This document shows, piece after piece, positions 6,232 through 8,412 of a stretch of DNA of 14,373 nt. Every line of letters starts with the position of its first letter. Within the stretch, counting starts at the first letter, position 1. A program made the position numbers and the translations under genes. Source of the stretch: a virus; the UHGV virus genome UHGV-1698782, one strand, 5' to 3'. A model generated the notes under the pieces. The model saw only the letters and a program-made list of their open reading frames with translations. It had not been told where the DNA came from and searched no databases.

Positions 6232-6264
6232 AAGTAAAAACAGGCTTGTTGATCAAGCCCCTGT
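6232..6264 (-). terminator. Probable minus-strand terminator directly after the protease gene
   Basis: Minus strand: ACAGGGGCTTG-ATCAA-CAAGCCTGT imperfect hairpin followed by TTTTTACTTT. Confidence 0.4.
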
Positions 6265-6358
6265 TCTTTAATGATTGAATCATTTTTCCTTGCTCGCTAA
6301 CTTTTTGCTTGCTAAGTATTTCTTCCACTTGTTGTGTCAGGGATTTGTCTTTGTTCAT

Positions 6359-7270
6359 TTATGACTCACTTTGTTCTGGAAAAGGGAAAGAAGACAGAAC
6401 AAGAACCTGTCGATTTGTTTTATACATGTATTCATTAATGACGTTATGTATATTTTTTAACGCCATGCTAAAATCTTTATCGTATGTAAAGTCTTCTACT
6501 TTTATCCTTAAGTCATTGATAAGAGTGTTTATTCCTATCGTTCTTCCGTGAGAATGCCACTTTCCGTTGTCACTAAGAGCGGTAGCGATCATTTTAGCCC
6601 TCGCTTCCTTTTCCCTCTTGGTAACTAGCTTTCCTCGTTTTGTGTTACCCTGATGAACTGTCCACTCTCTAAATTTATACTCCACAAGCCATTTCTTAAG
6701 CAAGTCTATTGATAGTTCTCTGGCTTGCTCATATCTCCGCAAGTGCGCCAGATCTAACTGACTAAGCATCATCAGTTCAGCTTGGGTAATGGTTCCTTCT
6801 CTGGATTTATTAATCATTTCTTCAACTTTATCAAGGTATCCCAAAGCGGGAACCCATTTACCGTCCGACGATTGCACTTGAGGATCAATAGGTCCTAATG
6901 AAGAAGCATAGTCCATGTAAATTTTATCTCCAGACATGCACCATATTGTACCTGCCGACATAGCCATGTCTGGAATGATAAAATATACCTCTTGGTAGAA
7001 ATGCCTTGTAATTTCTACCATTTTTTCTACAGACTCAACAGAACCACCGTTTGTATTGAGTATAATAACAAGAAATTTATTGGTACGACTGTTAGCCATC
7101 TCACCAATAGCTTCAAGTTTTGGCTGGTAAACTTCTTTTGACCATGGAAAGATGCCACCGTAGTACGCAATGACGTCACAGTTTGGGAAAAATTTATCCT
7201 TAAATTGCTCTAACTGCCAAGAGATGTATGTTTCTAGTGTTGAATCAAGATTTTGGCTCATTTGATACAA
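6359..7270 (-). CDS. SDH/S49-type ClpP-fold serine protease-like protein (303 aa), low-GC accessory gene
   Basis: Motifs ILNTNGGSV, IPDMAMSAGT (candidate nucleophilic Ser) and GDKIYMDYASSLGPIDPQV match the SppA/SDH serine protease core as I recall it; the gene is markedly AT-rich versus its neighbours and flanked by terminators. Confidence 0.7.
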   Translation of the reverse strand: MYQMSQNLDSTLETYISWQLEQFKDKFFPNCDVIAYYGGIFPWSKEVYQPKLEAIGEMANSRTNKFLVIILNTNGGSVESVEKMVEITRHFYQEVYFIIPDMAMSAGTIWCMSGDKIYMDYASSLGPIDPQVQSSDGKWVPALGYLDKVEEMINKSREGTITQAELMMLSQLDLAHLRRYEQARELSIDLLKKWLVEYKFREWTVHQGNTKRGKLVTKREKEARAKMIATALSDNGKWHSHGRTIGINTLINDLRIKVEDFTYDKDFSMALKNIHNVINEYMYKTNRQVLVLSSFPFPEQSES

Positions 7271-7335
7271 TACCTTGTTATATTAACAATTTACTATAAG
7301 ATGTTGCACCATAGTTTTCGTTAATCACAACTAAA

Positions 7336-7357
7336 ATCACCCAAACATCACCCAAAC
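7336..7357. repeat. Perfect tandem 11-mer (ATCACCCAAAC x2) upstream of the protease gene
   Basis: Read directly from the plus strand at 7336-7346 and 7347-7357; contains the ATCACC operator-type half-site. Confidence 0.9.
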
Positions 7358-7416
7358 GTCTCTTCAGGTTACTAGTTAACAACAGGCCAAAAATTCTGTC
7401 TGAACGTATTGAAATA

Positions 7417-7440
7417 AAGGCCGGGAAAGCGGCCTTGTTT
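7417..7440. terminator. Rho-independent terminator directly after the small secreted-peptide gene
   Basis: AAGGCCG-GGAAAG-CGGCCTT hairpin at 7417-7436; the small ORF stop codon (TAA, 7443-7441) sits immediately before it on the minus strand; GTTTTT follows on the plus strand, so it may act in both directions. Confidence 0.55.
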
Positions 7441-7602
7441 TTAGCGAATACCACCACCGCCAGGACGAGAATCAGCAGAACGACCACCACAACGAGAGCC
7501 GTCAGCAGCGGTATCATTGTCGTGTTGGCAACGACCAGCGAATGATTGAGTCGAAGCTACCAGTGACAACAAAACGAACAATACAGCAAATGATTTTTTC
7601 AT
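7441..7602 (-). CDS. Small exported protein: 22-aa Sec-type signal peptide plus a 31-aa Gly/Arg/Ser/Asp-rich mature peptide with two Cys
   Basis: MKKSFAVLFVLLSLVASTQSFA | GRCQHDNDTAADGSRCGGRSADSRPGGGGIR; canonical n-h-c signal peptide with an AxA-type cleavage site; codons are mostly GGT/CGT/GCT; stop codon is followed at once by a terminator. Same strand as cI, 97 nt downstream of it. Confidence 0.5.
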   Translation of the reverse strand: MKKSFAVLFVLLSLVASTQSFAGRCQHDNDTAADGSRCGGRSADSRPGGGGIR

Positions 7603-7698
7603 GTAAGACTCTATAGGTTGTGGGCAACTCAGATAATAATGCCAGAAAATCGCTTCCCAAGCATCTCCCGGCAAGGTTATTAATATCGCTCTGTGAGC

Positions 7699-8412
7699 TC
7701 AATCAAAAGTATCATCATTCCACTGCGATTTGATGACCTTTCCGACAAACTGGCAGTTTTCGTTACACTCAATCATGTCGAATCGTGGGTTGAGCGGCTC
7801 CAGGTACGCTTTACCGCTCTCACGAATGAATCGTTTGAAGGTAAATTCATCGCCGTTCATTCGGGCCACGCAAAAATCGCCATCCTCGATTTCCCGTTCA
7901 GGGTCAACGAGTATCAGCATACCTTCAGGGAAGCTGGGTTTACCACCCTGCGGTGCGGTCATTGAATGCCCCTTGACCTCCAGCCAGAACGACCTGTCAC
8001 TGGCTTTTGTGGTGGTGGAGATCCATTTAATCGCATCTTTTGCGGTGTACGAAATATCATCCATTGAGAATGCGCCAGCTTGTACGCAGGAGAGTAACGG
8101 ATATTCGTAAGCGGGGACACGAGTTAATGGCTCTTCAATTGCGAGCGCCATTTCTGCAATAGATTTTGCCAGGCTGGGACTGAAATCTCCGACCTTTACA
8201 TTCAGTATCTTAGCAAGCTGTGCTGCGTGGCTGGCATTTATGGCGTTGATGCCAGCCATTAGCTGATTAACAGCGCTTTGGGTAACACCTAATTCATAGG
8301 CTAATGATTCCTGCGACAGGCCTAACTCTTTCTTTTTAGCGTTAAAAATACTTTTCAGACGCTTGGCGTCTTCCAGTTGCTCAGGGGTTAACGGTTTCTT
8401 TTTCATGTTCAT
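7699..8412 (-). CDS. cI: CI-type prophage repressor (HTH N-domain plus S24 LexA-like autocleavage C-domain)
   Basis: Collinear with lambda CI as I remember it ([20 protein letters not shown]..., [19 protein letters not shown]-terminal [30 protein letters not shown]...FKR with the Ser/Lys dyad). Confidence 0.95.

Follow-up and report, generated by a model that had tools for sequence, protein, structure and literature searches.

A ClpP-fold serine protease gene and a linked mini-protein gene form a mobile two-gene cassette beside the repressor gene of an Escherichia coli lambdoid prophage

We analyzed a 14,373-nucleotide (nt) stretch of viral DNA, UHGV-1698782 (referred to here in its full length as the window), with respect to a serine protease gene located downstream of the cI repressor gene. 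Genome comparison revealed that the region around this gene is identical to a lambdoid prophage in the chromosome of E. coli UCPROB-001, and near-identical copies of the prophage were found in four further complete genomes. The window is an E. coli lambdoid prophage. Downstream of cI and on the same strand lies a gene for a 53-amino-acid (aa) peptide with a hydrophobic N terminus, which ends in a terminator hairpin and is followed by the protease gene. Both genes had been recognized in a preliminary description of this DNA, which took the protease to be a stand-alone gene with terminators of its own. We observed instead that the ATG of a 56-aa open reading frame (ORF) directly follows the TAA stop codon of the protease gene (TAAATG junction) and that the strong terminator comes after this second ORF; position 6232, previously taken as the left boundary of the locus, cuts through the overlooked ORF. 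The GC content of the protease gene is 38.3%, compared with 47.3% for cI and 47.9% for the window, in agreement with the earlier remark that the gene is more AT-rich than the prophage backbone. We conclude that positions 6158 to 7261 constitute a self-contained two-gene operon that was gained by horizontal transfer.

As the start of the protease gene we used the ATG at position 7261, which is the start chosen by the Prokaryotic Genome Annotation Pipeline (PGAP) and the one common to the homologues, resulting in a product of 300 aa; the gene had been correctly located before, its length of 303 aa being that obtained from an upstream TTG. The motifs IPDMAMSAGT and SSLGPIDPQV, on which the original assignment to ClpP-fold serine proteases was based, are present. 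Of the two profiles that had been expected to match, the Pfam profile PF01972 (SDH_protease) did so over residues 65 to 202, with 44.1 bits against a gathering cutoff of 31.3 (E = 1.7e-11) and with coverage of only profile positions 92 to 216 of 286. Peptidase S49/SppA did not (TIGR00706, 20.4 versus 155 bits), and the protein likewise fell short of NfeD (NfeD1b_N, 29.3 bits versus a cutoff of 40). PGAP names the product "SDH family Clp fold serine proteinase," despite a score of 57 bits for the NCBIfam equivalog NF047768 (Clp_like_SDH), which is under the 250-bit cutoff. The protease thus belongs to a divergent clade of SDH proteinases.

The AlphaFold2 model of the protease, which used 48 homologues, was confident (predicted local distance difference test, 90.7; predicted template modeling score, 0.88) and comprised an N-terminal helix, a ClpP-like core (residues ∼28 to 138), and a helical C-terminal domain, placing the protein within the ClpP/crotonase fold. 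When the model was compared to the PDB by the use of Foldseek, the best match was SppA (4kwb/3rst; E = 1e-6). Among viral structure models, the best full-length matches were giant-virus "serine dehydrogenase proteinases" rather than prohead proteases, with template modeling scores of up to 0.59 when normalized to the query and 0.69 when normalized to the target. Searching 1.84 billion cluster representatives with a profile, we obtained 337 clusters at E ≤ 1e-30. Conservation was assessed with 116 full-length representatives sharing 29 to 54% identity with the window protease. Three residues were near invariant, namely, Ser102 (116/116), Asp126 (116/117), and His238 (107 of the 113 sequences without a gap), and Gly72-Gly73 was kept in 115 of 117 sequences; Lys196 was present in only 90 of 117, and Asp144 was likewise not conserved. 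The SDH family name, according to the Pfam description, reflects the order Ser-Asp-His, and the conserved order Ser102-Asp126-His238 corresponds to it. These residues form the candidate catalytic triad. In addition, Ser102 aligns with the catalytic serine motif of SppA. No membrane-spanning segment could be discerned (maximum mean Kyte-Doolittle hydropathy, 1.17), and the protease is predicted to be soluble. Its gene is intact and under purifying selection, with a ratio of nonsynonymous to synonymous substitution rates (dN/dS) of 0.04.

The 56-aa ORF recurs together with the protease gene. In independent gene calls, the SDH gene is immediately followed by a gene of 55 to 75 aa in Kluyvera, Pectobacterium, Klebsiella, and Shewanella, as well as on a betaproteobacterial and a Bacteroidota contig, and at a Proteus locus the ORF is present and uncalled in the annotation. 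The products from these loci align with that of the window, having in common an invariant glycine (Gly34) and an aromatic residue seven positions further on. In the window partner the motif reads G34-L-I-N-K-P-V-F-T-L-A-Y-G-P, its enterobacterial form being G-L-I/L-x-x-P-x-F-x-L-A-Y-G-P; many partners from Bacteroidota and Acidobacteria carry the alternative motif Y-x-[LF]-P-x-x-D-T-[IL]-G-[KR]. In general, a conserved N-terminal part and the motif are followed by a C-terminal tail that varies by lineage.

To count the pairing, we used two criteria. By the loose one, which accepts any small ORF downstream on the same strand, 175 of 178 SDH genes were followed by such an ORF; this criterion is weak, since 57% of control genes passed it too. 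By the strict one, which demands an ORF of 50 to 100 aa starting within 25 nt, 76% of the SDH genes but only 12% of the control genes were followed by such an ORF, and the gap between protease and partner was at most 25 nt in 136 of 175 loci. The only SDH genes with no detectable partner were two at contig ends and one truncated ORF, meaning that every SDH locus with room for a partner has one. A hidden Markov model (HMM) was then built from the partners of the first 100 loci, which came from phage contigs and from assemblies fetched by protein identity, and was run against 6,365 ORFs from 79 independently retrieved loci of species representatives (E < 0.01). It matched 55 ORFs, 54 of which were the ORF directly after the SDH gene, and the 55th lay on the same strand 323 nt past a truncated SDH ORF. 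The mini-protein is the real, obligately linked partner of the protease. Its gene, too, is under purifying selection, with a dN/dS value of 0.1 to 0.2.

When the partner was scanned against Pfam and NCBIfam, no family matched, and all hits stayed at noise level (e.g., ArgR); no credible DNA-binding family was found in either library, and no SPFH domain was found in Pfam. Protein database entries for the partner are unnamed or labeled "hypothetical protein," and the gene is often uncalled. Hydropathy indicated no export signal, and the product is apparently a cytoplasmic mini-protein. In its AlphaFold2 model, two helices (residues 7 to 17 and 20 to 32) precede an unstructured, low-confidence tail, and it is this tail that bears the conserved motif. 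A conserved motif inside a disordered tail suggests a segment that folds upon binding to another molecule, for which the protease would be the obvious candidate.

The features of the locus and of the remainder of the window are listed in Table 1. The terminator at the end of the protease-partner operon also ends the convergent hicAB operon.

Table 1. Features of the prophage window, ordered by position
Feature	Position	Strand	Remarks
Rha-family antirepressor ORF	3842-4627	-	N terminus also matches Ash family
C4 antisense RNA and isrK RNA	4544-4744	-	Rfam, 78.9 and 64.8 bits, respectively; weak a1/b1 target site
Probable PL/OL, left boundary of the cI-PL slot	5178-5206	-	TTTACA-17-TATATT, 10/12 matches
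PL-like promoter with looser operator-like site	5178-5230	-	AATAACCACCAACGGTATT just upstream
hicA/hicB region	5418-6071	+	Perfect consensus sigma-70 promoter, TTGACA-17-TATAAT, 12/12
hicAB toxin-antitoxin pair	5476-6071	+	Convergent with the protease-partner operon
Strong bidirectional intrinsic terminator	6158-6189	both	13-bp perfect inverted repeat, -23.2 kcal/mol, z -3.4, then UUUUGUUUG
Partner mini-protein gene, 56 aa	6188-6358	-	ATG abuts the protease stop codon; annotated by PGAP
SDH-type ClpP-fold serine protease gene, 300 aa	6359-7261	-	Candidate triad Ser102, Asp126, His238
Region marking the recombination joint	7336-7368	-	11-nt tandem duplication (GTTTGGGTGAT twice) after the fossil cI end
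Fossil 3' end of a lambda-type cI	7348-7368	-	CCTGAAGAGACGTTTGGGTGA, PEETFG and stop; alignment with the cI ends of L002 and L024
Hairpin 3' of the 53-aa gene, moderate terminator	7417-7436	-	7-bp GC-rich stem, -10.8 kcal/mol, z -3.0
Signal-peptide/membrane-anchored mini-protein gene, 53 aa	7441-7602	-	phrog_14503, E = 3e-37
cI repressor gene, boundary of the slot	7699-8412	-	237 aa; HTH_3 and Peptidase_S24, E = 9.5e-29; PGAP "LexA family protein"
OR site	8417-8433		TATCACCTTTGGTTATA
cro		+	Divergent from cI
Replication region	9246-12107	+	128-aa ORF, DEAD/DEAH-box helicase (506 aa), DUF7146 protein (323 aa)
sok antisense RNA and 51-aa Hok-family ORF	13773-14097	+	sok, 119 bits; after the Q antiterminator gene

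The 53-aa peptide had previously been set next to the protease as one of two candidate components of a single locus. Its N terminus has a KK-hydrophobic-SFA pattern, with a mean Kyte-Doolittle hydropathy of 2.26 over residues 4 to 18, and it is described as a "membrane associated protein" by phrog_14503 and as a "transmembrane anchored protein" by PGAP. However, the gene was missing from every other SDH locus examined, and it occurs with no SDH gene in phage TL-2011b and in further Escherichia and Klebsiella phages. A role as the protease partner was thus ruled out, and the 53-aa gene is an independent moron outside the conserved cassette. How the two came to be neighbors can be read from the DNA between them. 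Here, CCTGAAGAGACGTTTGGGTGA aligns with the genuine cI end that precedes the cassette in lambda-like prophages (loci L002 and L024), and the homology to these prophages continues past the fossil cI end through the spacer into the SDH gene. We thus conclude that the cassette was imported by recombination from a lambda-like prophage, its landing site being downstream of the 53-aa gene, which was already present.

Lambda-like prophages of E. coli (L002 and L003) carry this cassette, with 92% DNA identity, exactly between cI and N; in these prophages and in one plasmid-borne prophage sequence, the order is cI, a 72-nt spacer, SDH gene, partner gene, terminator, and N. The order cI-SDH-N was likewise found in a Proteus prophage (L020). 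In the window, no N gene is annotated. Its PL-like promoter overlaps the operator-like sequence AATCACCGCAAGTTATA, which is similar to the OR site, and the operator search was weak, with 1.5 matches expected by chance. This element is probably PL/OL, which would put the cassette inside the interval between cI and PL. The placement in the position equivalent to that of rexAB, as originally proposed, thus agrees both with the promoter and with the lambda-like prophages. The C4 and isrK RNAs lie directly upstream of the antirepressor ORF and partly overlap it, and the region looks like a P1 immI-like c4/ant module that opens the probable PL operon, a place taken by N in lambda. Elsewhere, the genes of the replication region replace lambda O and P, and the genome record matching the window has an HsdM methyltransferase gene downstream, beyond the window end.

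Beyond the lambda-like prophages, prophages of Kluyvera and Klebsiella have the cassette behind unrelated repressor genes, among them one of the Rac type whose product lacks an S24 domain. In IMG/VR, a relative was found on 95 viral contigs. At 60 nonredundant loci, most of them in phages or prophages, we recorded the nearest upstream ORF with a length of 100 aa or more. Peptidase_S24 (27 loci), HTH_3 (25 loci), and Phage_CI_repr (7 loci) prevailed, and the remaining upstream neighbors included endolysins (CW_binding_2, GH25, or Amidase_2) and integrases. Sites next to repressor, endolysin, and integrase genes are the classical moron slots. With one genome considered per species, 487 of ∼100,000 species genomes (∼0.5%) carried a relative, distributed among Proteobacteria, Bacteroidota, Acidobacteria, Verrucomicrobia, Planctomycetota, Spirochaetes, Firmicutes, and one archaeal metagenome-assembled genome. 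Among complete E. coli genomes, the cassette was present in 17 of 5,426 (0.3%). Given the varied neighbors, the patchy spread, and the recurrent use of phage slots, we conclude that the cassette is an autonomous, sparsely distributed, and horizontally mobile unit which has been captured repeatedly by temperate phages. The cargo character ascribed to the region earlier is borne out by its AT-rich composition, its rarity in E. coli, and its recurrence after unrelated repressors.

None of the loci examined had the homologue within a capsid module, in line with the previous remark that the gene lies far from any head-morphogenesis module. These loci included both relatives detected in isolated phages. 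One of them, gene 31 of Gordonia phage BeeGee (L182), is in an accessory position after the tail genes, and the other, p15 of the Shewanella Mu-like phage MuM16-1 (L183), is in an accessory position with the late regulator C on one side and the lysis genes on the other. At neither of these two loci is a small partner annotated; the genes that follow are larger.

Three E. coli genomes, namely, those of JNEC-KY176 (L184, positions 5060 to 5400), FHI_NMBU_10, and strain 48, contained the same prophage backbone with an intact partner ORF (98.9% identity), while both the protease gene and the 53-aa gene were gone. Only ∼13 nt of the 3' end of the protease gene is retained at these loci. The gap is filled by a GC-rich hairpin element of ∼50 nt, which also has matches of ∼92% identity on more than 100 E. 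coli plasmids. The persistence of an orphan partner is compatible with the partner being harmless and the protease potentially costly.

Taken together, the anatomy of the locus, the obligate pairing, the purifying selection, the use of cargo slots, the sparse spread over many phyla, and the low GC content lead us to favor, tentatively and as something close to an even call, the view that the protease and its partner are a conflict module benefiting the lysogen. The module would serve phage exclusion or abortive infection, and possibly addiction, with the protease as its effector, a role that we infer from context. The mini-protein would be a dedicated pseudo-substrate, inhibitor, or substrate of the protease, and its disordered tail would dock there. 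Infection, or loss of the element, would then remove or displace the labile partner, and the freed protease would cleave host or phage proteins. It may also be, although we hold this broader proposal with somewhat less confidence, that the cassette exemplifies a family of immune or addiction modules that spans many phyla and is as yet undescribed, each module consisting of two genes and relying on a protease. In such a family, a self-compartmentalizing ClpP-fold protease would be curbed by the conserved disordered tail of a partner of ∼55 to 90 aa and released upon phage infection, and temperate phages of Proteobacteria and Firmicutes would have captured the modules repeatedly into repressor- or lysin-adjacent slots, where they would protect lysogens.

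Several observations weigh against a function in conflict. Searches with PADLOC-DB v2.0.0 (E ≤ 0.01) gave no match for the protease in its 303-aa reading or for ORFs 7441-7674 and 7278-7517, the partner not being among the ORFs scanned. This agrees with the preliminary description, in which the arrangement resembled no defense system that could be named, and the literature covered by our search contained no account of the pairing, of the repressor-adjacent placement, or of a function; the study of prophage defense by Brenes and Laub (2025) was beyond the reach of that search. The main text of the recent large defense-discovery papers examined does not mention the cassette. In a survey of the best 80 of the 487 species-genome loci, the upstream neighbors were mostly housekeeping genes, with 182 Pfam families in 134 proteins. 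Since most of the non-phage cassettes thus lie among housekeeping genes, a role in defense stays an inference. PADLOC matches among these 134 proteins were few (RmrA, 4; PD-Lambda-2_B, 3; capP, 3) and, because there was no background control, uninformative. Four Shewanella genomes have the pair at one and the same chromosomal site, which is the behavior of a stably inherited gene. Only the two distant relatives described above, with 26 to 29% identity, were found in 50,697 isolated phage genomes. Finally, read-through from the PRM promoter may be stopped at the hairpin 3' of the 53-aa gene, and ahead of the protease gene there is only a weak extended -10 candidate, which speaks against taking expression in the lysogen for granted; and the orphan-partner state probably goes back to a single deletion event.

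The most serious competitor to a conflict module, although in our view a rather unlikely one, is a processing pair in which the protease matures or degrades the partner or another cellular substrate, for example in regulation, signaling, or proteostasis, and which phages carry as a lysogenic conversion gene. The housekeeping surroundings of most non-phage loci and the conserved chromosomal site in Shewanella are what would be expected of such a pair, and the layout of the partner, in which a conserved N-terminal part and motif precede a variable tail, resembles that of a leader plus core. The protease is also structurally akin to NfeD 1510-N and SppA, and the NfeD-stomatin pair provides an analogue. 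Nevertheless, occurrence in ∼0.5% of species and 0.3% of E. coli genomes is a very sparse and patchy spread, atypical for a physiological function; moreover, the partner lacks an export signal, and our neighbor surveys revealed no receptor and no further conserved neighbor.

It is also unlikely that the cassette is purely an addiction module, that is, a toxin-antitoxin-like system in which the protease is the toxin and the mini-protein a labile antitoxin and which stabilizes the prophage or island with no anti-phage role. The two-gene architecture with its start-stop junction conforms to the coupled, codirectional layout of type II systems, and the cassette is autonomous and mobile, with varying neighbors. 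Other toxin-antitoxin genes are found nearby, namely, hicAB in the window and PIN/MazE, PIN_3, and Fic genes around the cassette at another locus (L018). That three genomes kept the partner after losing the protease agrees with an antitoxin role, and the IetAS system provides an example of a serine protease acting as a toxin. On the other hand, apart from a noise-level match to ArgR, the partner shows no recognizable domain for DNA binding such as type II antitoxins typically possess, and the strong preference for repressor-adjacent slots of lysogen cargo, which is the position of known exclusion genes, points away from addiction as the sole function.

An involvement of the protease in the lysis-lysogeny switch of its own prophage, e.g., through cleavage of CI, CII, or an antirepressor, is improbable. 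Such a role is suggested by the location of the cassette, which at ∼35 of the 60 nonredundant phage loci is directly downstream of the repressor gene and in the same orientation, often with gaps of 9 to 120 nt. It is disfavored because the adjacent repressors are unrelated (S24-type as well as noncleavable Phage_CI_repr, with 15 to 65% identity) and because the cassette is also found outside phages, at chromosomal sites, as well as after endolysin and integrase genes; furthermore, the sibling prophages function with no protease. That the gene is a displaced or decaying head-maturation protease of the S49/ClpP prohead type, now devoid of function, can be regarded as effectively refuted, since the weak profile similarity that suggests it (phrog_53, E = 4.7e-7; NF045542, 24.9 bits) is in the latter case far under the 120-bit cutoff, and since the gene is intact, with the low dN/dS value and the conserved candidate catalytic set given above, has no homologue in a capsid module, and has full-length giant-virus SDH proteinases as its best viral structural matches; profile score and genomic context thus rule out this identity.

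The protease family is already annotated, and the gene itself is therefore not new. What we did not find in the literature, and consider new, is the strict pairing with a family of mini-proteins and the recurrent placement next to repressor genes. Through this analysis, a gene that had been annotated but not studied becomes part of a defined two-gene module, with a strictly linked partner family that is unnamed in the libraries, a candidate triad, a candidate interaction motif, and sibling prophages from which the protease has been deleted. To our knowledge, ClpP-fold SDH proteinases have no assigned biology in bacteria. If the cassette does act in defense or addiction, it would add a new class of protease to bacterial immunity and provide a function for several hundred gene clusters across many phyla.

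Among known proteins, the canonical members of PF01972 from archaea and giant viruses are similar to the window protease in that the gathering score is passed, the structural similarity extends over the full length, and the candidate catalytic residues occur in the order Ser-Asp-His; the clade described here differs from them in being defined by an obligate mini-protein partner, which is undescribed for the family. For SppA, the title of PDB entry 4kwb refers to C termini bound in the protein's own active sites, which suggests a way in which the window protease might be occupied by a disordered tail. SppA, however, has a Ser/Lys dyad and is membrane anchored, whereas the window protease has the conserved His238 and Asp126 and no transmembrane segment. 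According to the titles of structure entries, NfeD 1510-N cleaves stomatin, its operon partner. The partner in the cassette is not an SPFH/stomatin protein, and the protease is predicted to be soluble rather than membrane bound.

Two protease-based systems invite comparison with the proposed conflict module. Lit, encoded by the e14 prophage, is a zinc metalloprotease that mediates abortive infection, acting alone on EF-Tu when triggered by the Gol peptide of T4. The window protease is likewise encoded by a prophage, but it has a different fold and no homology to Lit, which has no partner gene. IetS, the serine protease of the IetAS (Gao_Iet) system, is subtilisin-like, in contrast to the ClpP-fold SDH-type protease of the cassette. 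In IetAS, the serine protease IetS is the toxin and the AAA-ATPase IetA the antitoxin, and the system both stabilizes plasmids and defends against phages (PMC13069673). The cassette resembles it as a two-gene module with a serine protease, which in IetAS is the toxic effector; it differs in that the partner is a helical mini-protein of 56 aa and not an ATPase, and the PADLOC search detected no homology between the two.

In its position, the cassette is most like lambda rexAB and sieB. There is no sequence relationship to these genes, the cassette consisting of a ClpP-fold protease and a mini-protein, and exclusion would in this case be deduced from position. It nevertheless lies in the same slot, downstream of cI, in the same orientation, and ahead of OL/PL and N; like rexAB and sieB, it is AT-rich cargo with its own terminator, and its presence varies among sibling prophages. 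Further prophage exclusion genes next to repressors are stk of 933W and bstA of BTP1, and cargo adjacent to prophage repressors is a proven source of phage-exclusion systems.

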